DNA of 64,000 bases, taken from the NCBI GenBank assembly GCA_946529215.1, contig CAMMZC010000004.1, forward strand, positions 1,618-65,617, written 5' to 3'. The position numbers and the translations under genes were made by a program. Position 1 is the stretch's first letter. Each line of letters starts with the position of its first letter. Of the stretch, positions 9,928 through 58,810 are shown one piece after another. Source of the DNA: an uncultured Clostridia bacterium. GTDB taxonomy: Bacteria > Bacillota > Clostridia > TANB77 > CAG-508. A model generated the notes under the pieces. That model was not told the DNA's origin. It was given only the letters and a program-made list of their open reading frames with translations, and made no database searches.

Positions 9928-9929
9928 TT

Positions 9930-10832
9930 ATGAATTTTATTAAAAAATGGTATACATATCAAAAGGAAAGATTTCCAGTATTAATGTATGGAATATATAT
10001 TTTTGCAATAGTATTTTCTACATATAGTTTTGTGAATTGGTTAAATAACTCATTGTCATATTCAAGTGTAATAATAAAACCATTTGAATTTAAATGGAAT
10101 ATTGTAGGAATAATGTTTATTGTTGCTTTTTTACAGTTTTTAATGGTACGAATTATAGATGAATTTAAAGATTATGAAGAAGACTGCAAATACAGACCAT
10201 ATAGACCAGTACCAAGAGGCTTAGTTACTTTAAAAGAATTAAGAGTGTTATTCATAATATGTGTAATTATACAATTTTCAATAACAGCGATTTTTTGTGC
10301 AAATGCAATACCATTTTTAATTGCAGTGTGGATATTTTTTGCTATTATGAGTAAAAGTTTTTTTATAAAGAAAATAGTAGAAAAACATATATTACTAGAG
10401 GTGGCATTAGATGAGATATTAATGCCAGTTTTAGTTGTATATTTATCTATTTTTCCACTAAAACAAATTGTAATTGATAAATACTTTTTCTTATTTTTAA
10501 TTATGACATATATAATTTCTTGGATAGTTGAAATAGCAAGAAAAGTAAGATGCAAAGAGGATGAAGAAAAAGGTGTAAAAACTTATACAGCAGTATTTGG
10601 AATTAAAAAAGCTACTCTACTTTTGAGTGCACTAGAAATAATTTTAGCATGTATTCAAGGTATAATATTAAAAAAATATACTATTTCAGTTATATGCTTA
10701 ATTTTGGCAGTTATTTTAATTAATATTGGATTTATAACAAAACAAAATAAAAAGTTTGCAAAACTTACAGAATTATCAGCAAATATGTATATTTTCCTTG
10801 TTTATTTTAGTATGGGATTATTATTAATTTAA
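9930..10832 (+). CDS. UbiA-family prenyltransferase-like integral membrane protein
   Basis: 300 aa with about 8 TM helices. DEFKDYEEDCKYRPYRPVPRGLVTLKELRVLF is very similar to the UbiA motif NDxxDxxxD...RPLPSGxVTxKEAxxLF. Its start overlaps the preceding stop (9927/9930). Confidence 0.55.
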   Translation: MNFIKKWYTYQKERFPVLMYGIYIFAIVFSTYSFVNWLNNSLSYSSVIIKPFEFKWNIVGIMFIVAFLQFLMVRIIDEFKDYEEDCKYRPYRPVPRGLVTLKELRVLFIICVIIQFSITAIFCANAIPFLIAVWIFFAIMSKSFFIKKIVEKHILLEVALDEILMPVLVVYLSIFPLKQIVIDKYFFLFLIMTYIISWIVEIARKVRCKEDEEKGVKTYTAVFGIKKATLLLSALEIILACIQGIILKKYTISVICLILAVILINIGFITKQNKKFAKLTELSANMYIFLVYFSMGLLLI

Positions 10833-10846
10833 GGAGAACGAAAGAT

Positions 10847-19345: not shown

Positions 19346-19408
19346 GTTATTATAAAGTACACAATATACAATAATAATTACTAAATAATAACAAAGAAGG
19401 TGAAAGAT

Positions 19409-20053
19409 ATGAATATTTGTAAGACTGTTTTGGAGTGTATAGATCAATATCCTCAAGATGAACCAATATTTATTGAAGACATAAAAAGATATGTAATACA
19501 AAAGTGCAAAAATGAAGAAAAACAAAATGTTTCAAAAAATATAAATGTTATTTTAAATAGATTAAAAAACGAAGGTATTATTAGAGCAGAATATAAAGGT
19601 GTATATTATAAGCCTGTGTATACTATATTTGGAGAAATGGGGTTAGATACTAATAAATTAAGAAAACTAAAATATTTAGAAGATAGAGATGGGAATATAA
19701 AAGGTTATATAATAGGAGCAAAATTATTCAATATGCTTGGTTTAACAACTTTAGTACCCAATGTTACAGACATAGTTACAAATGAATGTAAGTATCATAA
19801 ACAATATGATGAAAAACTAAGAACCTATATAACAAAGCCTAAAATAGAAATAACAAATGAAAATTATAGGTACTTGCAGTTTATAGATATATTAGAAAAC
19901 AAAGATAATATTTATATTGAAGCTGATAATGCAAATGAAATTTTATATAGTATTATTGAAGAATGTAAATTAGATTTTGAAAAAATAATAAAATATGTTA
20001 GAGAAACAAATAGTAAAAATGTATTAGACAAGTTGTTAGTTCTAGCAAGATAG
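19409..20053 (+). CDS. abiEi: AbiEi-family antitoxin / transcriptional regulator (type IV toxin-antitoxin, abortive infection)
   Basis: About 215 aa. The central motif GYIIGAKLFNMLGLTTLVPN resembles the GY.sg.sAL..hGL AbiEi signature. It sits immediately upstream of a DUF1814 nucleotidyltransferase. ATG 19409 follows the RBS agaagg. The track ORF starts at GTG 19400. Confidence 0.6.
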   Translation: MNICKTVLECIDQYPQDEPIFIEDIKRYVIQKCKNEEKQNVSKNINVILNRLKNEGIIRAEYKGVYYKPVYTIFGEMGLDTNKLRKLKYLEDRDGNIKGYIIGAKLFNMLGLTTLVPNVTDIVTNECKYHKQYDEKLRTYITKPKIEITNENYRYLQFIDILENKDNIYIEADNANEILYSIIEECKLDFEKIIKYVRETNSKNVLDKLLVLAR

Positions 20054-20064
20054 GAGAACAGATA

Positions 20065-21021
20065 ATGCAATTTCATTTGAAAGAACAGGATTTTAAAAAA
20101 TTTATTAATGATATGAGCAAAAATATCAATATTGATGCAGACATAATCGAAAAGGACTATTATGTTTGTTCTGTATTAAAAGAATTAGCTGAAAAACAAG
20201 ATTATTTAAAAGCTTATTTTAAAGGTGGAACTGCTGTATATAAAATATTAGATACGATGAATAGATTTTCAGAAGATATTGATTTAACTGTTGAAGTAAT
20301 AAAAGAAGCTTCAAACAATAGCAATAAAACAAGATTAAAAAAATCTGCATTAGGATATAAAATACCTGGCTTAGAATTGGATAAAGATAAAACAAAAGAT
20401 GTTAAACAAAGTGTTACAGCATATTATAAATATAAATCTTTTTTTGAAAATGTAAAAAATCAGTTACATAAGGCAGGAGAAATACAAGTTGAAGCGACAT
20501 CATTTACAATTAGTGAACCTACAGAATTATATGTAATAGAACCTATTTTATATAAATATGCAAACGAAAGAGAAAGAGAGATTTTAGCAAAAGAATTTGA
20601 TATAAAACCTTTTGAAATAAAAGTTCAAAAATTAGAAAGAATCTTTATAGACAAGCTATTTGCAGCTGAACTATATTTTGAAAAGCAAATGTATATTGAT
20701 TTATCAAAACATTTATATGACTTAACTATATTGTTTAAAACAAAGAGGATACAAGATTTTTTACACAATAAAAAAGAGTATTTAAAAATTGTTAATTATA
20801 AAAGAGAAGAAGAAATCTATAGAAAAGGTGGAGTAGATAGAAAAAATAAAATTAAAGATTTTGGCTACTTTGATATGGAATATAATGATGATTTCTTAAA
20901 AGCCTTTAAATTAATGCAAGATAAGTATATTTTTAAAGATGAATATAGAATAACAATAGAAGATGTGAAAGAGGTGTTAAATGAAGTTAGAGAGTGGATA
21001 ATAAAATTAGAGAGGATGTAA
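20065..21021 (+). CDS. abiEii: AbiEii-family nucleotidyltransferase toxin (DUF1814)
   Basis: YFKGGTAVYKILDTMNRFSEDIDLTVEV matches the AbiEii KGGTAL...RFSEDxDxT nucleotidyltransferase motif. It starts 11 nt after the AbiEi stop. Confidence 0.75.
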   Translation: MQFHLKEQDFKKFINDMSKNINIDADIIEKDYYVCSVLKELAEKQDYLKAYFKGGTAVYKILDTMNRFSEDIDLTVEVIKEASNNSNKTRLKKSALGYKIPGLELDKDKTKDVKQSVTAYYKYKSFFENVKNQLHKAGEIQVEATSFTISEPTELYVIEPILYKYANEREREILAKEFDIKPFEIKVQKLERIFIDKLFAAELYFEKQMYIDLSKHLYDLTILFKTKRIQDFLHNKKEYLKIVNYKREEEIYRKGGVDRKNKIKDFGYFDMEYNDDFLKAFKLMQDKYIFKDEYRITIEDVKEVLNEVREWIIKLERM

Positions 21022-31258: not shown

Positions 31259-31341
31259 TTATACCTATTTTGAATACAATATAAATATCCGTAAAAAAAT
31301 TACGGCAAATATTGACAAATGCAAAACGAAGGAGTATAATT

Positions 31342-32472
31342 ATGATAGGTGATAATATGTTAGAAAAATTTAGTGTAAAGAATTATAAAAATTTTAAAGA
31401 TGAAATAACTATAGATTTCAAAGAAAAGCACGATTATCAATTTAACAAAAATTGTATAAAAGATGGAGTTTTAAATAAGGTCATAATATTTGGAAATAAT
31501 GGCGAAGGAAAGAGCAATATCGGATATGCAATATTCGATATTGTTGGAACATTAACAGATAAATATACTATTCCGCCACAAGCAAATGACTTTCTTAATG
31601 CAGATAGTGACTGCAAAGAAGCTGAGTTTTCATATACATTTAAATTTGGAGATATTATTGTACAATATAATTATAAAAAAAGTGAATTTAAAAAGATGAC
31701 ATTTGAAGAATTATATATTAACAATGAAAAAGTATATGAATATGATTTTGTAAAAAAGAGTTTTAATCATCAAAATATGAAAATGATTGAGGCTGAAACA
31801 TTAAATTTTGAATATTATGAAGCCAATATAGCTGTCCTAAGATATATTGCAAACAATACAACTCAAACAGATGAGTCAATAGTTAAGAAAATAATGCAAT
31901 TTGTAACTAGAATGTTATGGTTTAGATCATTAAGGGATAATAGTTTTATTGGAATGGAAATAGAGAATACAGATATAGCAGAATGGATTATATCGAACAA
32001 TTTAGTTAAAGAGTTTAATGAATTTTTAAGAGAAAATGCAAATTTGAATTTAAATGTAGGAAATGCGGAATTAATGGGAACTAAAAATACTAATATTTTA
32101 ATAGAAAAACATAAACATAGACCATTAGTGTTTAATAATGTTGCATCATCTGGAACTAATTCTCTATTATTGTATTTTTACTGGTATAAACATTTTAAAG
32201 ATGTTAAATTTCTATTTATAGACGAATTTGATGCATTTTATCATTTTGAATTGTCTAGAAATATCATAAAAAATTTGCTTAAATATGACAATATGCAAAC
32301 TATACTGACATCACATAACACCTATTTAGTGGATAATAATTTATTAAGACCAGATTGTTATTTTATATTAAAAGATGGAGCTTTGAAGTCATTTGCGGAT
32401 AGTACAGATAGAGAATTACGAGAAGGCCATAATCTAGAAAAAATGCTAAGACAAGGGGAATTTAATGGATAA
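31342..32472 (+). CDS. AAA_21/ABC-type ATPase, AbiLi/RloA-like, the ATPase of an OLD/PARIS/AbiL-type defense pair
   Basis: N-terminal FSVKNYKNFKD...KVIIFGNNGEGKSNIGYAIFDIVG (Walker A). The C-terminus has LFIDEFDAFYH (Walker B) and TSHN (D/H-loop). The RBS aaggag precedes ATG 31342. The track ORF starts at 31312. Confidence 0.65.
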   Translation: MIGDNMLEKFSVKNYKNFKDEITIDFKEKHDYQFNKNCIKDGVLNKVIIFGNNGEGKSNIGYAIFDIVGTLTDKYTIPPQANDFLNADSDCKEAEFSYTFKFGDIIVQYNYKKSEFKKMTFEELYINNEKVYEYDFVKKSFNHQNMKMIEAETLNFEYYEANIAVLRYIANNTTQTDESIVKKIMQFVTRMLWFRSLRDNSFIGMEIENTDIAEWIISNNLVKEFNEFLRENANLNLNVGNAELMGTKNTNILIEKHKHRPLVFNNVASSGTNSLLLYFYWYKHFKDVKFLFIDEFDAFYHFELSRNIIKNLLKYDNMQTILTSHNTYLVDNNLLRPDCYFILKDGALKSFADSTDRELREGHNLEKMLRQGEFNG

Positions 32473-33427: not shown

Positions 33428-34567
33428 TTACAAAATAGCCCCTAAAACAAATATACCCAAAATATCATTATAAATAGTATCAAACTGAGATATTGGAAGC
33501 GGGTTTTGACCTTCACCTACTTCAACAGTATATCCTGGTCTATTGTAATCTTGAATAAACCAATCTTTGTATCCTGCAAAGCTTGAATTAAATGGAGTTT
33601 TTTCTAAAGAATAGCCACTTACTCTTGCAAATTCATTTCCAATGAATAAGGCTCTTGGTGGATTATAGTTTTGAAATTGCCAAAAGATTACTTCACCTTG
33701 AGTATGAAATGCTATAACTAAGCTAAAATTATGTTGTAAAGTAAAGTTATAAATAGCTAAAGATTCTGGTTCTGTTAGTGGACCAAATCCTACAAAATCT
33801 CGTGGAGCAGGTGAGGTGAATCCTTGAGAAAATTTAATCTGTCTTGCTTGTTCCCAACCTGCAGGAAATTGCAGATTTAGGTCAATTCCGCCCGGATATT
33901 TGCTTTCCAACCATCAGGGAAAGGAATATTTGGGTAACGGCTAGCAATAAGCTCTGTATTTGTATATAAAGAGGAATTTGGGCTTATTTCTCCTGTGACT
34001 AGATCAACTCCATCAGGATTAACCATTGGCATAATATAAATTGTGCAATAATTATAAATGTTTCTTGCATTTACTTCATAAATTGGCAGATTATTTGTGT
34101 AGCAGTAACAATAATCAGCTAAGAATTTCATAATCAAAGGGGTACAAATCCATTCGTTTGCGTGGAACGAGCTTGAGTAAAATACCTCTCTAGAACCATT
34201 TCCAATTTTTATAACAGGAAGTGGTTTACCAAGCACACTTCTTCCAACAGATGTAATTTCTATAAAAGGATAAAGTCTTTTTAAGCTATCTAGATTTATT
34301 TGCAAAATAGATGAGCTATAACGAATATTGGTTGGAACAATAAATCCTAAACCACCATCTATGTATGGACGAAGTGCAAACCAAGTACGAGGACCAACAA
34401 TCCCATCTGCAACTAGATTGTTTTGCTTTTGAAACTGGGTTACTGCGTTTTTTAAATTAGGACCAAAAATGCCATCAATTTTTCCACGATATAGTCCTAA
34501 ATAAATAAGTATATTTTGCAGAAATTCTACCATCGGACCGAGTAGATCCAATTCTTAAAGTTTTCAT
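33428..34567 (-). pseudogene. Frameshifted gamma-D-glutamyl-L-diamino-acid endopeptidase (peptidoglycan-binding domain plus M14 zinc carboxypeptidase), at least two frameshifts
   Basis: Three minus-strand frames encode one protein. ATG 34567 gives MKTLRIGST... and then a stop. The TTG-initiated 224-aa ORF has the PG_binding_1 motif (GPNLKNAVTQFQKQNNLVADGIVGPRTWFAL) and the M14 Zn motif (SSFHANEW). The overlapping 160-aa ORF (33428-33910) continues the M14 domain in another frame. Confidence 0.6.
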
Positions 34568-42189: not shown

Positions 42190-45090
42190 ATGAATGACAA
42201 AATAGTAATAAAGGGAGCCAAGGAGCATAATTTAAAAAATATAAATGTTGAAATTCCTAGAGACAAGATGGTTGTAATAACAGGCTTATCAGGTTCTGGT
42301 AAGTCTTCTTTAGCGTTTGATACAATTTATGCAGAAGGACAAAGAAGATATGTAGAAAGTTTATCTTCGTATGCAAGACAGTTTTTAGGAGTAATGGAAA
42401 AGCCTAATGTTGATAAGATAGAAGGACTTTCACCTGCAATTTCAATAGACCAAAAAACAACATCAAAAAATCCTCGTTCAACAGTTGGAACAGTTACAGA
42501 AATATATGACTATATCCGTCTTTTGTATGCAAGAATAGGTGTACCATACTGTCCAAATTGTAACAAAAAAATTGAAAAACAAACTTTAGACCAAATTGTT
42601 GATAAAGTTTTAGAATTAGAAGAAGGAACAAGAATTCAAGTTCTTGCGCCTGTTGTTCGTGGTAAAAAAGGTGAATACAAAAAAGAATTAGAAAGCTACA
42701 GAAAAGCAGGATTTGTAAGAGTTCAAATTGATGGACAAGTTTATGATTTATCAGAAGATATTCAAATAGATAAAAACAAAAAGCATTACATAGAAATTAT
42801 TGTAGATAGATTAGTAATTCGCGAAGATATAAAAAGCAGGCTTACAGAATCTGTTGAAACAGCACTTTCTCATGCAAATAAATTAGTTGTAATAGAAGTT
42901 GCAAATAAGTTAGAAGAAAACAAGAAAAAATTAAATGATTTAGGTGCTAGAGATACTGCAAGTAGCAAAATGAAAGATGCAGAAACAAATGGCTCAAAAC
43001 AAATATTATTTAGTTGCAATTACGCTTGTCCTGATTGTGGATTTAGTTTTCCGGAAATAACTCCAAGAATGTTTTCTTTTAATGCACCAATGGGGGCTTG
43101 TCCATTATGTTTAGGTATTGGATATCTTATGAAAATGGACGAAGACTTAATTATTCCAGACAAAAACAAAACATTATATGATGGGGTAAAAGCATTTGGA
43201 GCAAGTACAATGAAACGTGGAGATACAATGGCAAAAATGTATTTTGAATCAATTGGAAGACACTATGGTGTAGATATTAAGAAGCCAATTAAGAAGCTTC
43301 CAAGAGAATTTTTAGAAAAAATCCTTTATGGAACAGGTGATGAAGAAATAGATTTTGAATATGAATCAAGTATTGGAACAAGACAATTTACTGCTCCATT
43401 TGAAGGTGTTATTCCAACACTAGAGAGACGTCATAATGAGACAAAATCTCAAGGAATGAGAGATTTTTATGAGATGTATATGAGCAATTCTGATTGTCCA
43501 ACATGTAAAGGTGCAAGACTTAAAAGAGAGGTTTTGTCAATTAGAATAGGGGATAAAAACATAAATGAATTAACATCAATGTCTATTGAAAAAATTCAAA
43601 GTTATTTAAGAAGTGTAGAACTTTCACAAACAGAAAAGCTTATTGCAGAAATGATTTTAATAGAAATAGACAAAAGACTTCAGTTTTTAATAGATGTAGG
43701 ATTATCTTATTTAACACTTTCAAGAAGTGCAGGAACATTATCTGGAGGAGAGGCACAAAGAATAAGGCTAGCAACACAAATAGGTTCAGGACTTACAGGA
43801 GTTTTATACATCCTTGATGAACCAAGCATAGGACTACATCAAAGAGATAATGCAAAATTAATTGCAACTCTTAAAAAATTAAGAGATTTAGGAAACACAC
43901 TAATAGTTGTAGAACATGATGAAGACACAATGTATGCAGCAGACCAGATTATAGACATTGGACCAGGTGCAGGAGTTCATGGAGGAAACCTAATTGCACA
44001 AGGAACCGCAGAGGAAATTAAGCAAGTAGAAGGTTCAATTACAGGAGCATACTTAAGTGGAAGAAAGAAAATAGAAATACCTAAAAAACGTAGAAAACCG
44101 GTTAAAGGCAAAAATATAGAAATAGTGGGAGCAACAGAAAACAATCTTAAAAATATAAGCGTAAAATTCCCACTTGGAGTATTTAACTGTGTTACAGGAG
44201 TTTCAGGTTCTGGAAAATCAACACTTGTAAATGAAATATTGTACAAAACAATTGCAAGAGACCTAAATGGTGCAAACGAAAAGCCTGGAAAATGCAAAGA
44301 AATAAAAGGTTTAGAAAATATAGACAAAATAATAAACATAGACCAATCTCCAATAGGAAGAACACCACGTTCAAATCCAGCAACATACACAGGAGTTTTT
44401 GATGATATAAGAGATATCTTTGCTAGCACAAATGAAGCAAAACTTCGTGGATACAACAAAGGAAGATTCAGCTTTAATGTTCCAGGAGGTAGATGTGAAG
44501 CTTGTAATGGAGATGGAGTTCACAAAATAGAGATGCACTTTTTAGCAGATGTTTATGTACCATGTGAAGTATGTAAAGGAAAAAGATACAATTACGAAAC
44601 ATTAGAAGTAAAATATAAAAACAAGAATATTGCAGATGTGCTAGATATGACAGTTGAAGAAGCATTAGAATTTTTTGATAAAATACCAAAAATAAAACAA
44701 AGAATTCAAACTCTATATGATGTAGGATTAGGATATATCAAACTTGGACAACCTTCAACAACTTTATCTGGTGGAGAAGCACAAAGAGTAAAACTTGCAA
44801 CAGAGCTTTCAAAGAGAGCAACAGGGAAAACTCTATACATATTAGATGAACCTACAACAGGGTTACATATAGCAGATGTTCATAGATTAATAAATATCTT
44901 GCAACGTCTTGTAGATACAGGAAATACAATAATTGTAATAGAACACAATTTAGATTTAATAAAAACTTGTGACCACATAATAGACTTAGGACCAGAAGGC
45001 GGAGATGGAGGAGGAACAGTAGTTGCAATTGGAACTCCTGAGCAGGTTGCAAAAAATGAGAAGAGCTTTACTGGGGAATTTTTGAGATAA
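42190..45090 (+). CDS. uvrA: Excinuclease ABC subunit A
   Basis: Two ABC ATPase modules ([28 protein letters not shown]; [17 protein letters not shown]), zinc-finger CxxC pairs and a length of 966 aa. Confidence 0.95.
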
Positions 45091-45154: not shown

Positions 45155-45207
45155 GTTGATAAGTACTGTTTTTTCCTGTTTCAACAGGAGACATTTTTTA
45201 TTGCATA

Positions 45208-45229: not shown

Positions 45230-45417
45230 GGAGCAACAAGGTTAAGTTTCTTTGATTCGTGCGGTTGCCAAGCAACCTGCACATGTGTCGAAGCCACTTT
45301 TCTTATTTGTAATATTTCTGTAATCAAAACTTAATATAAAAAAGTAATAAATTTATTGAAAGATAAAAAGTAAATTGATATAATACAAGTATAGTAATAG
45401 AAAAAAGGATGTGTACT

Positions 45418-48400
45418 ATGGAAAAATTAGATTTACAAACGTTTAGAGAACTAAAACAAGAAGTAATTGATATGATAAATAAATATAAAGAAGCAGATGA
45501 CAGAGGAGAATATCTTTCTGATGAAGAAGTACAACAATTTTTAACAAGATATAAAGAAATTATAGAAATATTATCAGAACATGATTTAAGTGATATAGAT
45601 TTTGAAGAATGGCGAGGAATGTATATCGGAACCAATGATGATTTTCCAATAGATTTCTCAAAAACAAAGGCAAATTTAGATTTTTCGATTATTGAATATG
45701 AAGACTTTTCTGATTTTGATTTTCCAAATTTTAGAGGTTGTCAAATAAAAAATTTTGACTTTGATAAATACAAATATAGCCCAGAGATGTTTGATGAGGG
45801 ATTTAGAAAAGAAAATGAAGGAAGATTCTTAAGTGAAAATATACCAGAAGATATTAGGGACAGATTTTATACTGGAAAACTTACATTAACAGATATAAGA
45901 AATAATCCTGAATTAGCTAACAAAATTTCAGAAAAAAATATAGATTATGAATTGAGATATATTTATAATTTTTTAGGTAGAGAAGAATTTTGTAAATTAG
46001 ATGAAGCCTTTATAGATGGTACATTTGGTTACAGTTGGAAAGAAGTATTAGAACAAAATCCTGATAAAAAAACAGCAAACGAAATTATGCCTATTTTATA
46101 TAAAGCGGCGAGAGAAAAGATAATTGGATATCGTGATGTATACCCATTTAACAGATTTGATTATTCACAAGAGCAATTAGGGCAGAAGTTTAAAGAGTTG
46201 AATCCAGATTTATTTTTACCTGAAGAAACACCTGATATTATAAAAGAAAGATATTATCACCATATCTTGTCAATTTTAGAATTTTCTGAAAATTTAAAAT
46301 ATTTTGAAGGGAAAAAAATTTCACAAGCATTTGTAAATGGATTTTCAACAGAAGGCATAAAACTAGTATCTCTTTATGGAGATAATCTATATCAACTTTT
46401 TAGTAAATATAAGCCAATAATGGATAAAATAATAACTACTAGCATAATTAGAATTATTGAAATACCAAATGGACCAATAACAGAGGAACAAAGAACAGAA
46501 ATAATGAAAACAATTGTAAAAGAATGCTTTGGGGGATATAATAGAATTGATGGAGTAGAAGATTGGTCAATGTTAAAGATGGTGCTAGATTTCGTATCTT
46601 TAACGGATCTAGTAGGAGCTGATATCAGAGCACAAGCTCTATTAGGAAAATATAATATTGATGATTTAATTGAAGCTGGTTTAGAGTTCAATGAAACTTA
46701 TAGTGAAGGAAAACTTGTTACTAATTTAGAAAAATTAAAAAAGTTATCTAATATTATTCAGCCAGAAGATATGATTCATTTATGTGGCTTAACAAAATTG
46801 ATCTTAATCGAAAAATATGGAATAGATAAACTAATAGAATATGGAATAAAAGATTTAGATGAATTATCAGAAACAATAAATGATTTATATAAAATTAAGG
46901 AAATGCTTGAAAAAAGACCTATAGAGCTAATTAATATGGGAGGTAATTATTCACAACAAAATAGAAAATTTATAGAGAAATATGGAATAGATAATATTAT
47001 TGCTTTAGACGAAGAAACAAATGGAATGTTTTCTCATCAGCTATGGCATAATGATATTTTTTTATCGATGATGGCTATTGCAGATAGTAGAACTCCTGAA
47101 AAAGAAAATGATAAACAGCTTACTTATAATCAATTTAGAGATAGAATGTATGAAATTTTGCTACATGCAAGAGATGAAAGAGGGGTATTAACTTCAAGAG
47201 ATTTCCAAGATTACGATTTTATTCAAGGTAAATTCAGAGAGGAACATCAAGAAATATTTATAGACGAAGATCTTCCAGAAGATGTAAAAAGAGCTTTTTA
47301 TACTAGACATATGACAGCAGAAATGGTAATGCAAAATCCTGAACTTATTCAATTACTACAAGGAAAAGATTTAAGCAGAGCATTTCCACAAAATATGACA
47401 GCTGGTCTTGCTTTATTACAGAAAGATAAAGAGGGAAATATAATCGGAGGAATTCCCAATACAGTAAATATGGCTGAGTGCCTTTCACAAAAATTAGGAC
47501 AAGAAGAATTTTTGAAAATATGTGCTGATTATGGAAAATGTTTAGATGAAATTAATTTATTTATTGGAGATGAAAAAACACCTGAAGAGATTAAAATGCT
47601 TATAGAACATACAATTTATCTAGATATAAAACAAAGAGGAATAGAGTATTTTGAAGAATTACCATTAAGTTTTCAAAAAAAACATCCAGAATTATTCCTT
47701 CCAAAAGAAGTTGATGAAGAATTAAGAAGTAAATTCTATGCTGGAAAATTATCTTTTGAAGATATAAGAAAAAATCCACAATTAAAAGATATTTTACGCA
47801 CAAAGGATGTTAGTGTAGGCTTTGGTAGAATAAAATATGTACAGCCAACGCTTTTTAGAAATGTTCAAAGAGATGTTAAGCCAATGTGGGAAATATTATC
47901 TGAGCAAGAAATTATGGATTTCGCTGAAGAATATGGAAGATATTTAAATGATGTCGACCAAAGTATTTTTATTGAAGGACAAAGCAAAGAAGAAATAAAA
48001 AAAGCATTAGAAGCAAATATTGAGCAAAATATTTTAGACAGAAAATCTTTATTTGCTCCAAGTGTACCATCATTTTTTAAACAAATTCACCCAGACATGT
48101 TTTTAGATAGTAATGCTCCTGATGAACTAAAATCTGTTTTTTATGATGCCTCAAGAATACGTAATAGAATTTATGGTGGAGAAATTGATTTTCAGCTAAT
48201 AAAATACCATCCAGAATGGAGAGAATTTTTACAAGGTAAAGATTTAAGTAGAGCATTTTCGAGCGAGTATAGTGAACTATTTAAAAGATTTGATAGTAGT
48301 ACTCTTATGAAATTAGGAACAAGAAATCCAGAGACTATAGAAAAAATGGTGCAAAATCATATGGAAGATGTCTTAGAAGGTTGGTATAAATCTACAGGAG

Positions 48401-50340
48401 GAAAATACGTTCCTCATCATGTGGTTATGCTTAACTTCCCAGAGGGCGAAATAGATAGTTTTATTAGCAATAGCAAAAGATGGTCACAACTAATGAGAAT
48501 AGATAACTATAGTTTGAATGATGATGGAAAAGCGGCTATATTAAAAGCAGCATATGCTATGGGAGTATTTCAAGGCAATGATGATGGATTTAATAAAACT
48601 ATGAAATTATTTATCGATGTTCCTCAAGAATTAACACAAGAAGAATATAGAAAAGTGACATGTATGATTGTTAGAGAATTTGATCCATTTAGGTGGAGTG
48701 GAAATTATAGTGATCCACAGAAAAAAAATGAAGAAATGAAAAGCTTATTTGAACAAGCATATACTTTAAATGAAAATGGTAAATATGTCTTTAGTATGGA
48801 TAAGCAAAAGAATAAAGACCGTGTTAGAATGGTAAGAGAGATATTAGAAAAAGCACAAATACCAAGAATTTTAACACCAATAAAGGCACATCAAATGTTT
48901 GATTCTTTTGCAATGGAATATAATCCTGACTTTGTTAGATTTTTTAACGAAAATGTTGAAGAAATTTTATCTAATCCAGAATATACAAAAAATATTGCAA
49001 CAATACAAAGACAATTTAAAGATATTGTGAGAACAAATGCTGGTAGAAGATTAACTCTTGATGTAGCACTAGATTATATTAAAAGTATTGTATATACAGA
49101 TATTGAAGTTGGAAATGAGGGAGTTGCAGAGCAAGCAAAAATTGCTGGATATTCTCAAAAAGATTTTGAAACAATACAAAGTCTATTTAATGAAGGCGAA
49201 GTAAGAGATTTTTCAAGTATTCCAAGAATACAAGGAAGTACAAAAGGATACACTTATGAAATGCTTAGATGTGATGATCCATTAGCATTAACAATTGGAA
49301 CTCTTACAGATTGTTGCCAAGAAATACATGGAGCTGGACAAACAAGTATGGAACATAGTGTTGTATCTCCAGATGGAAGAGTATTTGTTGTAAGAGATGC
49401 AGAAGGAAGATTAGTTGCACAAAGCTGGTTCTGGAGAAATCAATATACAGGCTGTTTTGATAATATTGAAATACCTCATAGAATATTTGAAATATATGAA
49501 AAAGAGCATCCAGATGTTGGTAGAAAAGGATTAACTACTGATGTATTAGAAGTTTATAAAAAAGCAGCTCAAGACTTAATGCAAGAAGATGCAATAGTAT
49601 ATCAAGAATTATTGGAAAATGGAATTATAACTCAAGAACAATATGATGCATTATTATTAGGAAAAGTGACAATTGGATTAGGTTATAATGATATTGCAGA
49701 TGCTATTAGAACTGATAAAACAATACATCAAGAAACAGATAAGGTTGGAGTAAAAGCTACAGATAGGTTACCACATCCATATACAGATGCGAGTACACAA
49801 TATACAATTGCAGAAAGAGAAGGTATAGTAAAGTCAGAATATGAAAATTTATATGTTCATCAAGATGATATACCTGTGTATGATGGAACAAATATGTCTA
49901 ATACAGTACTACTAACAATGAAGAGAATGGAACAGGGGACAGACAGAGATAATTTAGCGTATTTAGGTGAAAGAAGTGATGAAAAAAACTTACCAAAATC
50001 ACAAAGAATTATCAATAGCATAGCTAGAGAATATGGACTAGATCCAAATGATACACGAGTAATGGCTACTGCAAGAATAGCTCTTATATATAGTAAAGAC
50101 AAAGATAATAATGTAATAATTAGTGATTTATTATTTTCACCATTGAAAAAAGGATTAACTGAAGAACAAAAACAAAAAGTTACAGCACATATAATGCATC
50201 AAGTAAAAAAGGCATTAAAACAAATAGGTGTACAAGATTCTAAAGTTGATATATCATCATTAAGTGAAGAACAGAGGCAGATGCTACAATCTGTTATGCA
50301 AGAAATAGAAAAAGAAAATGATGAAAGAGGTGAAAGATAA
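45418..50340 (+). CDS. Very large (~1640 aa) cytoplasmic protein with internal ~300-aa repeats and a Cys/His-containing C-terminal core; function unknown
   Basis: ATG 45418 follows the RBS aaaggatg. Repeated units contain F(L/I)PxExPE(D/E)xKxxFYxGxL(S/T)xxDIRxNPxL...L(Q)GKDLSRAF; KDLSRAF occurs twice, at DNA 47361 and 48232. The C-terminal region has ...YEMLRCDDPLALTIGTLTDCCQEIHGAGQTSMEHSVVSPDGRVFVVRDAEGRLVAQSWFWRN.... No signal peptide or TM segment. Confidence 0.6.
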   Translation: MEKLDLQTFRELKQEVIDMINKYKEADDRGEYLSDEEVQQFLTRYKEIIEILSEHDLSDIDFEEWRGMYIGTNDDFPIDFSKTKANLDFSIIEYEDFSDFDFPNFRGCQIKNFDFDKYKYSPEMFDEGFRKENEGRFLSENIPEDIRDRFYTGKLTLTDIRNNPELANKISEKNIDYELRYIYNFLGREEFCKLDEAFIDGTFGYSWKEVLEQNPDKKTANEIMPILYKAAREKIIGYRDVYPFNRFDYSQEQLGQKFKELNPDLFLPEETPDIIKERYYHHILSILEFSENLKYFEGKKISQAFVNGFSTEGIKLVSLYGDNLYQLFSKYKPIMDKIITTSIIRIIEIPNGPITEEQRTEIMKTIVKECFGGYNRIDGVEDWSMLKMVLDFVSLTDLVGADIRAQALLGKYNIDDLIEAGLEFNETYSEGKLVTNLEKLKKLSNIIQPEDMIHLCGLTKLILIEKYGIDKLIEYGIKDLDELSETINDLYKIKEMLEKRPIELINMGGNYSQQNRKFIEKYGIDNIIALDEETNGMFSHQLWHNDIFLSMMAIADSRTPEKENDKQLTYNQFRDRMYEILLHARDERGVLTSRDFQDYDFIQGKFREEHQEIFIDEDLPEDVKRAFYTRHMTAEMVMQNPELIQLLQGKDLSRAFPQNMTAGLALLQKDKEGNIIGGIPNTVNMAECLSQKLGQEEFLKICADYGKCLDEINLFIGDEKTPEEIKMLIEHTIYLDIKQRGIEYFEELPLSFQKKHPELFLPKEVDEELRSKFYAGKLSFEDIRKNPQLKDILRTKDVSVGFGRIKYVQPTLFRNVQRDVKPMWEILSEQEIMDFAEEYGRYLNDVDQSIFIEGQSKEEIKKALEANIEQNILDRKSLFAPSVPSFFKQIHPDMFLDSNAPDELKSVFYDASRIRNRIYGGEIDFQLIKYHPEWREFLQGKDLSRAFSSEYSELFKRFDSSTLMKLGTRNPETIEKMVQNHMEDVLEGWYKSTGGKYVPHHVVMLNFPEGEIDSFISNSKRWSQLMRIDNYSLNDDGKAAILKAAYAMGVFQGNDDGFNKTMKLFIDVPQELTQEEYRKVTCMIVREFDPFRWSGNYSDPQKKNEEMKSLFEQAYTLNENGKYVFSMDKQKNKDRVRMVREILEKAQIPRILTPIKAHQMFDSFAMEYNPDFVRFFNENVEEILSNPEYTKNIATIQRQFKDIVRTNAGRRLTLDVALDYIKSIVYTDIEVGNEGVAEQAKIAGYSQKDFETIQSLFNEGEVRDFSSIPRIQGSTKGYTYEMLRCDDPLALTIGTLTDCCQEIHGAGQTSMEHSVVSPDGRVFVVRDAEGRLVAQSWFWRNQYTGCFDNIEIPHRIFEIYEKEHPDVGRKGLTTDVLEVYKKAAQDLMQEDAIVYQELLENGIITQEQYDALLLGKVTIGLGYNDIADAIRTDKTIHQETDKVGVKATDRLPHPYTDASTQYTIAEREGIVKSEYENLYVHQDDIPVYDGTNMSNTVLLTMKRMEQGTDRDNLAYLGERSDEKNLPKSQRIINSIAREYGLDPNDTRVMATARIALIYSKDKDNNVIISDLLFSPLKKGLTEEQKQKVTAHIMHQVKKALKQIGVQDSKVDISSLSEEQRQMLQSVMQEIEKENDERGER

Positions 50341-50341
50341 T

Positions 50342-51637
50342 ATGGATAATATAAGAGAAATATTAGGAAATGCAACAATGGCTTATACTAATATGGAGGC
50401 AAATATAGATGGGAAAAAGGTAGCTCAAAATATATTTGAATTATTAGATGAAAATAAGGAAGGTATTGAAAAAGCAAATAAAATAGATGTAAAAAATAAT
50501 AATGGATTTAAAATAAACTTTGATATGTTTCAAAAACTAGATAATGAAATTAATGATACCCAAGATGTTTATAGAAAAGTTTTATCTATGAAAAAAAATG
50601 AAAATAATTATTTAGAAGGAAAGCAAACAGATAATTTAGGAACTATTTGTCTTGTTTATGATGGAAATACATATTGCTTATTAGAATTAGTTTTAAAAGC
50701 AATATTGACACATAATAGCATAATTATTACAAGTGAATCTGACTATATGAAAGCTACAAATGAACTAATAGTAATTTTAATTCAAAGAATATTAGAGGCA
50801 TATAGCATAGATAAAAACTTAGTACAAATATTATATACAAGCAGATTAGAAGAACTTTTGTCAAATAATACAAGCATAAATAAAGTAATTGCTATTGGAA
50901 ATAGAAATTTTCAAAACAAAATAAGAAAAATTTCAAAAGTAGAAGTTATTTGCAAGGGATACAACAACTTTGATTTATACATAGAGGATTTGACAAATTT
51001 AAGTTTTATAAAAAATATAATAAAAGAAGAGGAAAATATAGATATATATGTAAAGAGTGGCTTAAAAGTTCCTTTTGAAGACTATATTGAAGTAGAAGAT
51101 ATTGATGAGGCAATAGCACAAATAAATTTTAATACATCAGGCTATAGTAGTAGCATATTTACAGATAATAATCAGAACGCATCTGAATTTTTAAGAGAAG
51201 TTAAAACAAAGAACGTATCTGTTAATAGTAGTCCACTAATCAAAGGGAGTGTGGATTTAGATATTAATTTACTTCTAACAAGAAAAAATATGTTTTATCC
51301 AAATCCATTGACTGAGGGTACAGAAAAAAGTAAGTTTGAGTTTCCAACAGCAAAAGCTATTCTTGAAAAAAATAAAAGTAAAGAAGAAAAAATGAGGATA
51401 GAAGAAATGCAAAAAGAAAACACAAAATTAATAGAAAATAGTGAATATATACAGAAACAGTCAAAAATACAATTGGATAAAAAAGAAATGGAAGTAAAGG
51501 AATTACAAAGACAATTATCAGAATCTCAAAACCTAGCAAATAAGTATATGAACATTTTTAGAAAATCATTTTTTAGTAGATTATTTGGTAGATTAAAAAA
51601 AGAAGAAATTGAGAATGACACAAAATTGCTTTCGTAG
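50342..51637 (+). CDS. Degenerate ProA-like (gamma-glutamyl-phosphate reductase / ALDH-fold) protein with a C-terminal coiled-coil extension; likely non-catalytic
   Basis: It is translationally coupled to the upstream giant gene (the track ORF start at 50318 overlaps its stop; ATG 50342). The N-terminal ...EGIEKANKIDVKNNNGFKINFDMFQKL..., the core LGTICLVYDGNTYCLLELVLKAILTHNSIIITSESD and the region IDEAIAQINFNTSGYSSSIFTDNNQNASEFLREVKTKNVSVNSSP run parallel to ProA ILNANAQDV...[48 protein letters not shown] and [45 protein letters not shown]. The segment around the catalytic Cys is missing or shortened. The last ~90 aa are heptad-like (EEKMRIEEMQKENTKLIEN...KELQRQLSESQNLANKY). Confidence 0.55.
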   Translation: MDNIREILGNATMAYTNMEANIDGKKVAQNIFELLDENKEGIEKANKIDVKNNNGFKINFDMFQKLDNEINDTQDVYRKVLSMKKNENNYLEGKQTDNLGTICLVYDGNTYCLLELVLKAILTHNSIIITSESDYMKATNELIVILIQRILEAYSIDKNLVQILYTSRLEELLSNNTSINKVIAIGNRNFQNKIRKISKVEVICKGYNNFDLYIEDLTNLSFIKNIIKEEENIDIYVKSGLKVPFEDYIEVEDIDEAIAQINFNTSGYSSSIFTDNNQNASEFLREVKTKNVSVNSSPLIKGSVDLDINLLLTRKNMFYPNPLTEGTEKSKFEFPTAKAILEKNKSKEEKMRIEEMQKENTKLIENSEYIQKQSKIQLDKKEMEVKELQRQLSESQNLANKYMNIFRKSFFSRLFGRLKKEEIENDTKLLS

Positions 51638-52106: not shown

Positions 52107-52858
52107 ATGGATTTAGAAATTATTAATAACACCTCAGATATTATAAAATGTCAAAACACAGATGATGTATTAAAAGATGTATGCTATATTATAGACTCAG
52201 AGAACAATATGCACATCGTTCAGTAAATATTGCATTAGTTCAAAGAAATTGGTTTATTGGATATAGAATTGCAGAAGAAGAATTAAAGGGAAAAGATAGA
52301 GCAGATTATGGAGAAAAAATAATAAAAAAATTATCAAAAGAATTAACAAAAAAATATGGAAAAGGCTTTGATAGAAGACAATTATATTATTGTTTAAAGT
52401 TTTACAAAACTTTTCCTGAAATTGTGAACGCAGTGAGTTCACAATTTAAAAGATTATTATCATGGACACATTACAGAATTCTATTACAAGTTTTTGATAA
52501 AGAAGCAAGAGATTGGTATGAAAAAGAAGCTTTAAAAGAAAGCTGGGGAACAAGAACATTACAACGAAATATTGATACGCAGTATTACTATAGACTTCTA
52601 AAGTCACAAGCAAAAGAACCTGTAATAAAAGAAATGCAAGAAAACACAAAAGAATTTGAATTAGAAAAGAAATTAGAATTTATAAAAAGTCCTGTAATAG
52701 CAGAATTTTTAGGATATTCATTAGACAGTAAAGTAAATGAAACAGAACTAGAAAAAAGTATAATAAATAATTTACAAAAGTTTATGATGGAATTAGGAAA
52801 GGGATATGCTTTTGTTGCAAGACAACAACAGTTAAAAAAAAGCAATCACAAATTGTGA
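52107..52858 (+). pseudogene. DUF1016/YhcG-family (PD-(D/E)xK nuclease) gene remnant with an N-terminal frameshift and a C-terminal truncation
   Basis: The 52181 frame gives ...REQYAHRSVNIALVQRNWFIGYRIAEEELKGKDRADYGEKIIKKLSKELTKKYGKGFDRRQLYYCLKFYKTFPE, matching the YhcG N-terminal domain (ARQQAARAVNSELVQLYWNIG...RADYG...GRGFSKRNL). The first ~25 codons lie in another frame (52107: MDLEIINNTSDIIKCQNTDDVLKDVCYIIDS). The ORF stops at ~225 aa, before the nuclease domain. Confidence 0.55.
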
Positions 52859-52893
52859 CCGCATATCAAAATAAAAAGAAAGGAGAAAATTAT

Positions 52894-53757
52894 ATGGAAA
52901 ATAATAAATTAGAAACAATAACAAAGTTATTTGAAGGAAAAGAGATAAGAAGTGTATGGGATGCTGAAAAGGAAGAGTATTTTTTTAGTGTAGTAGATGT
53001 AATAAGTGCACTAACTAATAGTACTGAACCAAGAAAATATTGGTCAGTTTTAAAAAGTCGATTAAAAAAAGAGGGCAGTGAAGTGACAACAAATTGTAGT
53101 CAGTTGAAAATGTTAGCTCCAGATGGAAAAATGCGTTTAAGAGATGCGATGTCAACTCGTGATATTTTTAGACTTATTGAATCTGTACCAAGTAGCAAAG
53201 CTGAGCCTTTCAAACTATGGCTAGCGCAAATGGGAAGTGAAAGAATTGATGAAGTTTTTGACCCAGAAATAGCAATAAAAAGAGCAGTAAATTATTACAG
53301 AAATAGAGGATATAGTGATAAGTGGATAGAAGCAAGACTAAAAGGAATACTAACAAGAAATAAACTAACAGATGTATGGAAAGAAAACGGAATAGAAAAA
53401 GATTATGAATATGCAATACTTACAAATGAAATATATAAAAGTTGGTCAGGAATGAAAGCAAGTGAATACAAAAAGTATAAAAACATAAGAAAAGAATCTT
53501 TAAGAGATAATATGACTGATATAGAAGTTGCGCTAACTGATTTAGGTGAGATTGCTACGAGAGAATTAGCGAAAGAACATAAACCTTATGGGTTAGAACA
53601 GAACAAAAATATTGCGAAAATGGGAGGACATGCTGCAAAAGTTGCAAGAGATGATTTAGAAAAGAACTTAGGAAAATCAGTTATAAGTCATAAAAATGCT
53701 TTGGATTATCAATATGAAAAGACAAAGGAGTTAAATGAAGGGGAAAATCACCACTAG
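52894..53757 (+). CDS. DinD-like / Bro-N-domain DNA-damage-inducible-type protein
   Basis: ATG 52894 follows the RBS aaaggagaaaa (MENNKLETITKLFEGKEIRSVWDAEKEEYFFSVVDVISALTNS...). This resembles the Bro-N/DinD N-terminus (F..ir.v..g.ewfsa.Dva.aLg). The track ORF starts at 52855, overlapping the yhcG remnant. Confidence 0.45.
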   Translation: MENNKLETITKLFEGKEIRSVWDAEKEEYFFSVVDVISALTNSTEPRKYWSVLKSRLKKEGSEVTTNCSQLKMLAPDGKMRLRDAMSTRDIFRLIESVPSSKAEPFKLWLAQMGSERIDEVFDPEIAIKRAVNYYRNRGYSDKWIEARLKGILTRNKLTDVWKENGIEKDYEYAILTNEIYKSWSGMKASEYKKYKNIRKESLRDNMTDIEVALTDLGEIATRELAKEHKPYGLEQNKNIAKMGGHAAKVARDDLEKNLGKSVISHKNALDYQYEKTKELNEGENHH

Positions 53758-56863: not shown

Positions 56864-58810
56864 ATGGATGATTTATTAGAAAGTGTATTAGATTATGTTA
56901 GATCAGATTACACAGATTATGCAATAATGATAAATGGAGAATGGGGTTCAGGAAAGACATATTTTTGGAATAATCAAATAAAAAGAAAAATAGAGTCATT
57001 AAGTTTAAATGGAAAGAGATATAAAACCATATATATGTCTTTGTATGGAATTTCTAACTTAGAAGAAATAAGCAAAAAAATTTTTATAGAAACAACTCAA
57101 CTTATGGACAAAGATTTAAGAAGATATATGCAAACACATGAGCATGACGGAATACCAGAATATGCAAAAACAAGCATAGATATGGCAAATCTTTTCGGAG
57201 TTTCAAAAAGTGGAGAGAAAATAGATTATGATGAATTTTTTGCTGTTACAGATAAAGTTTTATGTTTTGATGACCTAGAAAGAGCAAATGTTGATGTTAT
57301 AGACATTTTGGGTTATATTAATAACTTCGTTGAACATGATCATATGAAAACAATAATTATTTGTAATGAAAAAGAATTGGCAACAAAGATGAAAAGTGAA
57401 AATTTAGAAATGAAGACTTTTATTGCAACATATCTTTTAGATAAACAAGGTGAATTAAATAACAATGATTTACCTATGGTTGAGAAAATAAAAGATAGAA
57501 TAGAAAAAGTCTTTGAAAGAACAAATGATTATGAAAGAATTAAAGAAAAGCTTATAGGAGAAACTTTTGAATATGCACCCAAATTTGATTATATAATTAA
57601 TGGAATTCTTATGAGGTATGAATCTAATCCATCACTTTTAAAGTTTTTAAGAGAAAATTCAAGTTATATAATGGCAACATTTAAAAGAAGTGGTACGAGA
57701 AATCTACGTATTTTAAAACAAGCTTTAAATGATTTTAAAAAAATTTATGAGATGACGGAAAAGCTTTATCCAAATACTAATAGACGTGTAATGCAAACAA
57801 TGCTTATATTTACTATTGCGGCATCTTTTGAAATTAAAGCAGGAAAAATAACAAAAGAGAAATTTAAATATATAGAGGATAATGAAGAATATAAATCAAT
57901 TTTAGTTTCTTCAAGAGTTTTGATGGATAACAAACAATTTTATATAAAAGAATTTGATAGTAATTATTACTACAATTTTAAAGCAGAATATAGATTTTTT
58001 AAATTTATAGAGTACTATATTAGAACAAGAATTTTTGATATGAAACTATTTAAAAAAGATATGGAAGAAGCTGAACTTGCTTCAGGTGGTGAAAAAGATA
58101 TGCCTGCATACAAGAAAATTTTGGTGGAGGAATATTGGAAAATTCCTGATGACAAATTTTTTGATGTAGTGTATGAAGCTCTAGAAGACGTAAAAAAAGG
58201 AAAACTTCAGTTAATTGAAATTGCAAAATTATTTGTTTATTATATTTATTTTTACAATAATAATTTAATAAGCTATGATTTAAAAACATTAAAAGAAGAC
58301 TTTATAACAGGAATGAATATAGCAGTTGCACATTCAAGATATTTTCCAAATGTACGTGAAGAACTTGAAAAAATATCTATTTACAACAATTCTTCTGATG
58401 ATATAAATGATGTGGTAAGTAGTTTTAATCAACTTAATGATGAATTGCTTGAAAAAGAATATGAAATAAAAGCAGAAGAAATATTCAAAAACATTCCTAT
58501 GAAAATGGAACAATTTTATGAAAGATTTGATGCTGAATGTATGGATATACCAATCTTTAAATATTATGATCCATATCAAATTTTACAAAGAATTTCTTGT
58601 GCACCAAATGAAGATATAGTTATTATAAAAGAAAGAATGATAAAAAGAGCTAATCAACATCCAGAAGTATTAAAAGAAGAAATGAAAAATATGAATTCTT
58701 TAAAACGTATGATTACAGACTACTTAAAAGGCAAAGATACCACAATTAAAACTGTAATTATGAAAGGATTTGCAAAAGATTTAGAACAAATTATTGCTGA
58801 GGAAGACTAA
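56864..58810 (+). CDS. KAP-family P-loop NTPase
   Basis: N-terminal YAIMINGEWGSGKTYFWNNQI is the KAP Walker A (G.WGsGKS/T). A Walker B-like CFDDLER is also present. Length 648 aa. The RBS aaaggagag precedes the ATG. Confidence 0.7.
   Translation: MDDLLESVLDYVRSDYTDYAIMINGEWGSGKTYFWNNQIKRKIESLSLNGKRYKTIYMSLYGISNLEEISKKIFIETTQLMDKDLRRYMQTHEHDGIPEYAKTSIDMANLFGVSKSGEKIDYDEFFAVTDKVLCFDDLERANVDVIDILGYINNFVEHDHMKTIIICNEKELATKMKSENLEMKTFIATYLLDKQGELNNNDLPMVEKIKDRIEKVFERTNDYERIKEKLIGETFEYAPKFDYIINGILMRYESNPSLLKFLRENSSYIMATFKRSGTRNLRILKQALNDFKKIYEMTEKLYPNTNRRVMQTMLIFTIAASFEIKAGKITKEKFKYIEDNEEYKSILVSSRVLMDNKQFYIKEFDSNYYYNFKAEYRFFKFIEYYIRTRIFDMKLFKKDMEEAELASGGEKDMPAYKKILVEEYWKIPDDKFFDVVYEALEDVKKGKLQLIEIAKLFVYYIYFYNNNLISYDLKTLKEDFITGMNIAVAHSRYFPNVREELEKISIYNNSSDDINDVVSSFNQLNDELLEKEYEIKAEEIFKNIPMKMEQFYERFDAECMDIPIFKYYDPYQILQRISCAPNEDIVIIKERMIKRANQHPEVLKEEMKNMNSLKRMITDYLKGKDTTIKTVIMKGFAKDLEQIIAEED

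Follow-up and report, generated by a model that had tools for sequence, protein, structure and literature searches.

The enzyme closest to the protein described here is gamma-glutamyl-phosphate reductase (ProA), a member of the aldehyde dehydrogenase (ALDH) superfamily (family ALDH18) whose catalytic cysteine in Thermotoga maritima is Cys255 (PMC4271523). An ALDH-type fold without the catalytic triad has been described in vertebrate ALDH16A1 and in the C-terminal ALDH-like domain of PutA/ALDH16, and such non-catalytic ALDH proteins are thought to work through protein-protein contacts or oligomerisation (PMC12041015). Very large multidomain cytoplasmic proteins, some of them with GNAT domains, are known from mobile elements of Firmicutes as polyvalent proteins (PMC5512222). 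Here we describe a gene pair that touches on all three. It lies in a 64,000-nt stretch of DNA (hereafter the window) from an uncultured Clostridia bacterium (contig CAMMZC010000004.1, positions 1,618 to 65,617), with a G+C content of 24–31% in 2-kb windows and nearly all genes on the forward strand. The downstream gene of the pair codes for a ProA-derived protein that has kept the fold of the enzyme and lost its catalytic loops, and the upstream gene, with which it is tightly coupled across many gut Bacillota, codes for a 1640-aa protein (hereafter the giant). The features of the ProA-like gene that matter first are the following (positions are those of the window).

50342–51637, forward strand: ProA-like pseudoenzyme gene (431 aa plus stop)
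50342–51307, forward strand: globular ProA/ALDH-fold domain (aa 1–322), confidently modelled by AlphaFold2 (AF2)
51029–51034, forward strand: E230/E231, the junction at which the catalytic Cys loop is deleted, placed by alignment with full-length ProAs and by the two-stretch matches described below

The open reading frame (ORF) spans 50318–51637 on the forward strand and gives 439 aa when counted from an upstream ATG. This was the length reported in an initial annotation of the locus made from the DNA letters; it holds only for that ATG, and the gene coordinates reported with it (50342–51637) correspond to 431 aa. The ATG at 50342 is the better-supported start, since it lies 1 nt past the TAA stop of the giant gene and 9 nt past the Shine-Dalgarno sequence GAAAGAGGTG, and since the identical public protein (P0001) is called with the same start.

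The window protein is a descendant of ProA with a retained fold, as the initial annotation had proposed from the parallel between the two sequences. In a phmmer search it matches T. maritima ProA (1o20) with E 1.3e-10, and a profile of 38 family members retrieves from the PDB E. coli ProA with E 1.6e-33 and 1o20 with E 5e-32. The AF2 model has a mean predicted local distance difference test score of 89.1 (10-residue block means mostly above 90 over aa 1–320), and Foldseek places at its ranks 1–16 only structures of gamma-glutamyl-phosphate reductase (GPR) or pyrroline-5-carboxylate synthase (best E 6e-21), led by 1o20 and E. coli GPR (8zoo/8zon/8zok). The motifs DEAIAQIN, SSSIFT, NASEFLREV and VSVNSS, on which the proposed parallel was based, are all found in the window protein.

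The match to ProA is nevertheless split in both the phmmer and the profile searches into two stretches, which omit residues ~257–330 of the 1o20 chain, about 75 residues. In every family member the TQRPSxCNA loop, which carries the catalytic Cys, is reduced to a 9-residue gap between E230 and E231, and the window protein has cysteines at positions 103, 112 and 204 only. Alignment with full-length ProAs reveals two further excisions, one of ~57 additional catalytic-domain residues just downstream of the E230/E231 junction and the other of the 20-residue C-terminal active-site loop FTDG..GAE..STQKLHAR. Point replacements add to these losses. The ESRPN motif of ProA aligns with D107-G-N-T-Y111 (DGNxY in the family), placing Tyr111 at the position of the Asn that we take, from what is known of the ALDH superfamily, to form the oxyanion hole. 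GNCH is replaced by N-N-F-D211. Of the elements that serve NADPH binding in ProA, the RGG that follows the KxGN strand is replaced by T130-S-E and the PRGG loop by A-I-G186-N, and the segment EEDxxTE(F/Y)LD, which in ProA precedes the VKxV strand, is deleted. The Rossmann core is retained together with N125 and G186. Judged against real ProAs, the losses of catalytic elements are identical in all 38 aligned family members.

As all members are without the Cys loop, without the oxyanion Asn and without the C-terminal active-site loop, the window protein, judged by its sequence, cannot be a gamma-glutamyl-phosphate reductase. That it is a working housekeeping ProA is accordingly close to inconceivable, even though its best sequence and fold matches are ProAs and one close homologue carries, from a single naming source, the public name 'gamma-glutamyl phosphate reductase [Clostridium sp. 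CAG:571]'. The scores against the NCBIfam proA equivalogs TIGR00407 and NF001221 are 58.6 and 58.4 bits and miss both cut-offs (317 and 289); scans of the window ORFs detected neither an AA_kinase (ProB) nor a P5CR (ProC) domain, and the conserved neighbour is instead the uncharacterised 1640-aa protein. The initial annotation had described a shortened centre without an evident Cys, no adjacent proB and a catalytically dead protein; the alignment and the domain searches agree with the first two points, and the alignment supports the third as far as the ProA reaction is concerned and extends the loss to the whole family. Three full-length ProA-like proteins from elsewhere (P0262, P0266 and P0270; 410–420 aa) have a loop that is otherwise intact but lacks the catalytic Cys (aligned as VDPAEGNAAE, QNSLADNSIS and GHPEAVNAVE), and further ProA-derived pseudoenzymes may exist beyond this family.

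An exhaustive HMMER search over 1.84 billion cluster representatives returned 177 matches. The strongest are mostly ~290–340 aa long and align over residues 1–320 as one stretch; genuine ProAs (~410–440 aa) surface only at E 1e-8 or weaker, and in two stretches. The family is small, has a typical length of ~320 aa and is hosted by uncultured low-GC gut Bacillota. Among nine close relatives, the ratio of nonsynonymous to synonymous substitution rates (dN/dS) is 0.14 in the globular domain, 0.27 in the helical stalk described next and 0.14 in the C-terminal motif. With a dN/dS of 0.14, the gene is under purifying selection and is not a decaying pseudogene.

Behind the globular domain, the AF2 model of the window protein has a disordered linker (aa 324–336), one continuous helix (aa 337–408) and then two short helices.

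51350–51565, forward strand: predicted continuous 72-residue helix (aa 337–408), a charge-rich stalk, from the AF2 model, composition, heptads and distribution
51527–51634, forward strand: C-terminal motif L.ES..LA.KYMNIFR.SF.SRLFG.LKKEE...D.KLLS (aa 396–431), from conservation in relatives

The helix has a moderate heptad signal, with a hydrophobic occupancy of the a/d positions of 0.25–0.62 in the best register. Of its 72 residues 30 (42%) are charged, and 10 opposite-charge pairs stand at i/i+4 spacing. A coiled coil is plausible from the model, and a single stable helix is equally possible. The C-terminal motif is kept in P0121, P0124, P0131, P0147 and L019, down to ~40% identity. The tail as a whole is limited to the subclade made up of these and the window group, being missing from the close relatives L013, L014, L016 and L017 and from all ~320-aa members. 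The coiled-coil tail of the initial annotation thus stands as a long predicted helix, with only moderate heptads and a distribution confined to one subclade. A C-terminal amphipathic helix that targets membranes was considered and ruled out by the hydrophobic moment of 0.03–0.28 over the FRKSFFSRLFGRL segment.

The features that bear on the coupling of the ProA-like gene to the giant gene are the following.

45356–45384, forward strand: promoter-like site TTGAAA-17-TATAAT with an upstream TG (11/12 consensus matches, best in the region)
45418–50340, forward strand: giant ORF, 1640 aa (1643 aa if counted from the ATG at 45409); the identical public protein P0271 has 1640 aa
50323–50332, forward strand: Shine-Dalgarno sequence GAAAGAGGTG of the ProA-like gene, within the last codons of the giant gene and 9 nt before the ATG

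The promoter-like site, a consensus match only, stands 34 nt ahead of the giant ORF, and a terminator-like hairpin (45172–45191) stands 3' of the preceding gene, uvrA (42190–45090). Together they make the two genes look like one operon, of which 45356–45384 is likely to be the start. At the junction, which reads GAAAGAGGTGAAAGATAA-T-ATG, the stop codon of the giant gene (TAA, 50338–50340) is separated from the ATG at 50342 by one spacer base. The Shine-Dalgarno sequence GAAAGAGGTG precedes the ProA-like start in most loci. The giant ends in a conserved Glu-Arg-Gly (50323–50337) encoded by GAAAGAGGT, and R1637 is invariant in the giant alignment; because the Shine-Dalgarno sequence of the downstream gene sits in the same codons, this conservation may reflect an RNA signal rather than a function of the protein.

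Scanning GTDB representatives, with a single genome for each species, retrieved 74 loci, all of them from uncultured gut Bacillota labelled as Clostridium sp. CAG:571/710/914, Mycoplasma sp. CAG:877, Tenericutes, Bacilli or Candidatus Coprosoma. By tblastn, 67 of the 74 have a homologue of the giant, with identities as low as ~30%, and nearly always its end lies just upstream of where the ProA-like gene starts. Among the seven others, three have the ProA-like match right at the start of a contig and so cannot be scored, and four are solo genes. No genome with the giant and without the ProA-like gene was found among the genomes scanned. The distance from the giant stop to the ProA-like ATG could be scored in the 58 loci with a long upstream ORF (three of them copies of the window sequence): the commonest values are −11 nt (31 loci) and +1 nt (14 loci), and 54/58 fall between −41 and +1. 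When the flanking ORFs were clustered, the only conserved families were the ProA-like protein (72 loci) and the giant (67 loci), followed by generic ABC ATPases in 14 loci and by serine recombinases in 11. The pairwise identities of the two proteins correlate with r = 0.90 (1225 pairs from 50 loci), and the pair is therefore inherited as a unit. The coupling to a 1640-aa ORF that the initial annotation had noticed in this one sequence is thus conserved across genomes.

Searches of Pfam, NCBIfam, PADLOC and PHROG with the giant itself yielded nothing significant, nor did phmmer and profile searches of the PDB. None of its 141 homologues is named by any source, and a homologue search with the profile of its core domain retrieved unnamed fragments only. 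Two kinds of element stand out in its sequence.

45805–45942, forward strand: first copy of the repeated motif F..HPELFLP.E.PEELK..FY.G.L(T/S)..DI..NPEL, found by regular expression and inspection
49102–49719, forward strand: most conserved region of the giant, a GNAT-fold core (aa 1229–1434), by conservation and fold

Further copies of the motif lie near aa 610–660, 755–800 and 895–945, and columns of the repeats are conserved in homologues (F895, L896, P901, L904, Y909, Y774 and P787). The name 'repeat protein' used in the initial annotation is therefore correct as far as it goes; it says too little about the giant, in which a domain of GNAT fold forms the conserved core. A conserved stretch in the N-terminal region (45550–45792, aa ~45–125), DLSDI..EEW...DFSKT.ANLDFS....NF.GC.I.N, recalls pentapeptide-type repeats and has no Pfam match.

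Conservation is highest in the C-terminal region of the giant and lowest in its N-terminal half, and the core carries the invariant signature G..T.CCQ ... M.HS ... AQSWxWRN ... CFDNIEIP ... G.IT.EQY ... K.T.G.G.ND. The canonical GNAT topology is beta1-alpha1-alpha2-beta2-4-alpha3-beta5-alpha4-beta6. The secondary-structure order of the core agrees with it, and it has the mixed beta-sheet with the beta4/beta5 splay and the four helices of the fold. The Acetyltransf_* Pfam models do not match the giant or 13 homologous C-terminal regions at E ≤ 1–10, hhalign of the core against two GNATs from the window gives a probability below 1%, and the only candidate in the core for the acetyl-CoA motif (Q/RxxGxG/A) is GRKG(L/F)T, partly conserved and absent from distant homologues. 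The core is best described as a new GNAT-fold family, and its invariant Cys, His, Asp and Glu suggest that it may be catalytically competent.

A large protein followed by a smaller gene is also the layout of polymorphic toxin loci, and the pair could be a toxin-immunity or toxin-antitoxin system in which the giant carries a C-terminal GNAT-type toxin and the downstream gene codes for the immunity protein. GNAT-fold toxins of the TacT and AtaT types exist, an AbiEii gene and the PADLOC candidates PDC-S02, S13 and S49 are found in the window, and several loci have a mobile-element context. We consider this unlikely. No signal peptide and no secretion or trafficking domain (LXG, RHS etc.) was detected in the giant; its C-terminal region is the most conserved and its N-terminal half the most variable, opposite to polymorphic toxins; the ProA-like proteins, at 320–430 aa, with a dN/dS of 0.14 and present in many species, are unlike small, fast-evolving immunity proteins; and the ProA-like gene stands alone in some genomes, the giant alone in none found.

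The surroundings of the pair vary even between loci whose ProA-like proteins are 72–89% identical to that of the window. Serine recombinase genes are found no more than a few kb away in the 11 loci mentioned above, and in some loci the pair is adjoined by Mob_Pre relaxases (L021, L009), TraG/VirD4 (L047, L063) or RhuM/Fic (L033). This variable location and the mobility-gene neighbours suggest that the pair is an accessory, mobile cassette. PADLOC finds no known defence system for the ProA-like protein or the giant, and PHROGs gives only weak matches, to ALDH-type C-terminal motifs. A more specific version of this idea, which we regard as rather improbable, is a new kind of two-protein conflict module on integrative elements (for defence, anti-defence or establishment), in which the ProA-fold pseudoenzyme would sense a ligand or target and gate the giant effector through its GNAT-like catalytic domain, a domain that cyanophages use too.

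The same context bears on a different proposal, a lineage-specific cytoskeletal or structural module in which the giant and the stalked ProA-fold protein would together make up a large assembly in the cytoplasm of these small-genome gut Bacillota, unconnected with mobility or conflict. Sixty-seven species-level genomes have kept the pair, seemingly as a single copy; its divergence bands track the labelled lineages, with 72–89% identity in the CAG:571 group and 33–46% in metagenome-assembled genomes labelled 'Bacilli/Tenericutes'; no copies of the pair are found on plasmids or viral contigs (PLSDB, IMG/VR); and one clade has the long helical stalk. Against these stand the variable genomic position among close relatives, the mobility genes that adjoin the pair in more than 11 loci, the giant core, which with its invariant Cys, His, Asp and Glu looks like an enzyme fold and not like a structural repeat, and the dispensability of the stalk in close relatives. 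Such a module seems somewhat less probable than the conflict system, though less improbable than a toxin-immunity pair.

The explanation that we prefer, with a probability of roughly 0.5, is a composite one: the window protein would be a ProA-derived, non-catalytic partner subunit of a giant with a GNAT-like effector core, and the two would form an accessory, probably mobile module. The loss of the catalytic loops with the fold kept, the purifying selection, the conserved overlapping gene order and the co-divergence of the two proteins all argue for a subunit that lost catalysis and retained its fold to serve as scaffold, adaptor or regulator of the giant. A single promoter and coupled translation would provide the two proteins in matched amounts. 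The GNAT-fold core, acyl-CoA N-acyltransferase-like, would be the likely effector activity. Holding or regulating the giant would be the task of the ProA-fold subunit, for which the oligomerisation strands retained from ProA may serve; as the C-terminal strand of the ProA oligomerisation domain is still present, a dimerising or scaffolding role is plausible. In the subclade of the window, a further partner might be reached by the long helical stalk, at whose end the conserved basic-aromatic motif lies. As a whole, the two genes would make up a horizontally mobile accessory cassette, possibly related to conflict. The structural, sensor or adaptor role suggested in the initial annotation would fit these data as well.

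Several observations weigh against this explanation. The ProA-like gene is solo at L023, L024, L054 and L067, and the gene order is reversed in L016 and L017. No recombinase or relaxase was found near the pair in the window, neither the ProA-like protein nor the giant was found on PLSDB plasmids, and the ProA-like gene was not found on IMG/VR viral contigs. Two distant family members (24–25% identity), P0182 and P0221, are encoded 12–20 nt downstream of large Pfam-less proteins (862 and 786 aa) at the following loci.

L078, 422–3924: locus of a distant family member
L080, 5628–8897: locus of a distant family member

These upstream proteins have no homology to the giant by hhalign or BLASTP and are not detectably related to each other; all that the giant and the two have in common is short repeated SHOCT-like motifs, Y..G.I....D/E-L. 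The partnership may thus be with a class of proteins rather than with the GNAT-like domain itself. Finally, many polar residues are invariant in the family (D49, N125, N140, Y213, Y236, N262, N295 and K315) and might make up a ligand-binding or catalytic site of a new kind. The host of L080 (P0221) is a spore-former, with Spo0A, SpoIIID and SipL nearby.

The retained residues are the starting point of one more alternative, in which the ProA fold would have been put to a new use, either sensing a small molecule or working as an enzyme through a new active site; the ligand might be a nucleotide, an NAD(P)-derived or a CoA-type compound, and its binding would switch the giant effector on or off. 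In a family whose mean column identity is only 32%, some 20 polar or aromatic positions vary hardly or not at all, and the five positions common to the family and true ProAs (D49, G100, N125, G186 and N295) all lie in the Rossmann-type part. The low dN/dS is in line with this, and a partner with an acyl-CoA-type fold would make chemical sense. A comparison of the ProA motifs, read in the light of the ALDH superfamily, suggests on the other hand that cofactor contacts are altered or deleted: RGG, the PRGG motif at its second Gly, and the segment with the counterpart of the region of ALDH Glu399/Phe401. The conserved residues may equally mark a protein-protein interface. We hold the sensor or new enzyme to be about as doubtful as the conflict module, and retain the non-catalytic partner subunit as the preferred explanation.

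Other parts of the window contain further genes of note. Three genes downstream of the pair (52181–53757 and 56864–58810, forward strand; recD2 and comF intervene) match PADLOC candidate families. The first codes for a DUF1016/YhcG protein (PDC-S02) that covers the first 57 of the 157 positions of the PDDEXK nuclease model, which we take as a truncation, and overlaps the start of the second, a Bro-N gene (PDC-S13); the third codes for a 648-aa KAP NTPase (PDC-S49). An AbiEii-type nucleotidyltransferase toxin gene (20065–21021, forward strand) is preceded by a 217-aa ORF without a Pfam match (19400–20053), a possible AbiEi partner, and an AAA_21/SMC_N ATPase is encoded at 31312–32472; the window is rich in genes of toxin-antitoxin or defence type. 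A compact, biosynthetic-looking cluster at 4918–15112 (forward strand) codes for a DUF3419 protein, a 448-aa protein of no recognised family, a GNAT, an AMP-binding enzyme and a UbiA prenyltransferase, and contains an unusual 1421-aa fusion of PPDK_N, a PEP-utiliser mobile domain, an AMP-binding domain and a carrier protein. At 33428–34551 (reverse strand), around which the GC skew flips, a peptidoglycan-binding M14 carboxypeptidase appears split into two overlapping ORFs, one with PG_binding_1 and the N-terminal half (33877–34551) and the other with the C-terminal half (33428–33910), probably a frameshift or pseudogene. Outside the window, the sole 'phage' match to the ProA-like query (L081; MT839215.1, 'UNVERIFIED: Bacteriophage sp.', 4.5 kb) was rejected, being an ordinary bacterial proA with an intact Cys loop; judged by eye from the ORF translations, its neighbours look like a MiaB-type radical-SAM methylthiotransferase, a 5-formyltetrahydrofolate cyclo-ligase and a dCMP deaminase, and the DNA is probably bacterial.

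The identity of the ProA-like protein matters for annotation, as metabolic reconstructions that take the public name at face value would credit uncultured small-genome gut Bacillota with a step of proline synthesis that is beyond this protein. The family also appears to be a clean bacterial case in which excision of whole catalytic loops made a non-enzyme out of an enzyme fold that then stayed under purifying selection. The coupling provides a handle on an unannotated 1640-aa family and on a new GNAT-like domain that it has in common with cyanophage proteins; should the pair prove to be a conflict module of mobile elements, its effector domain and its type of regulatory subunit would both be new.

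Among described systems, the polyvalent proteins (Iyer, Burroughs, Anand, de Souza and Aravind 2017) resemble the giant in size, in the GNAT-like domain and in the mobility genes near several loci. They differ in that none of their hallmark domains (ArdC, methylase, SNF2, peptidase, LPD) was detected in the giant, where only one assignable domain was found, the GNAT-like one, and in that many loci of the pair, the window included, have no mobility genes nearby; the words 'aldehyde dehydrogenase' do not occur in the text of that paper (PMC5512222). Membership of the giant in the PcfJ family (PF14284) was rejected, as neither the giant nor 13 homologous C-terminal regions match it in Pfam at E ≤ 10; PcfJ-like phage proteins give weak fold matches to the core (E 3e-4 to 3e-2, TM ~0.16). 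From the GNAT superfamily the core differs in its CCQ, AQSWxWRN and CFDNIE elements, which correspond to no known GNAT motif. Its best fold match among viral models is a 656-aa phage protein (BFVD A0A7G9A3X2, Foldseek E 5e-11), and by sequence the domain is found in ORF68 of the Microcystis phage MaMV-DC (L077, 2660–4753; BLASTP E 6e-15, 28% identity). The ORF68 family has the core domain, at the end of the protein, with the same invariants T.CCQ, AQSWTW.N and CFDN.E, and further copies, all hypothetical proteins, are found on six IMG/VR contigs (L082–L087). These proteins are uncharacterised, far shorter than the giant (~650–700 aa) and encoded by cyanophages, whose hosts belong to another phylum; no ProA-like gene stands beside the core-domain genes of MaMV-DC or the six contigs.

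ProA (TIGR00407; PDB 1O20, 8ZOK) is the best match of the window protein in both sequence and structure, and of its parts the N-terminal helices, the Rossmann-type domain, the motifs INxxxxGxSxxIxT and VNxS and the C-terminal strand are kept. The window protein differs from it in that the FTDG...STQKLHAR loop is gone together with the Glu equivalent to E. coli E383, in that its partner is the giant gene and not proB, and in the ~100-aa C-terminal extension of one clade. Our literature searches on ProA brought to light neither a pseudoenzyme derived from ProA nor this gene pair.

In function, the nearest analogues are ALDH16A1 and the C-terminal domain of PutA, which have reached the same kind of evolutionary outcome that we propose here. 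They come from other ALDH families than ProA/ALDH18, and they are fusions or full-length ALDHs with point substitutions, whereas in the family described here whole catalytic loops have been excised. To our knowledge, none of the non-catalytic ALDHs of the ALDH16A1/PutA type occurs in bacteria as a separate protein whose gene is coupled to that of a giant partner. Pseudoenzymes of the ALDH fold are thus already known, but the gene pair described here matches no described system, and its conserved coupling points to an undescribed two-protein module rather than to a metabolic enzyme.

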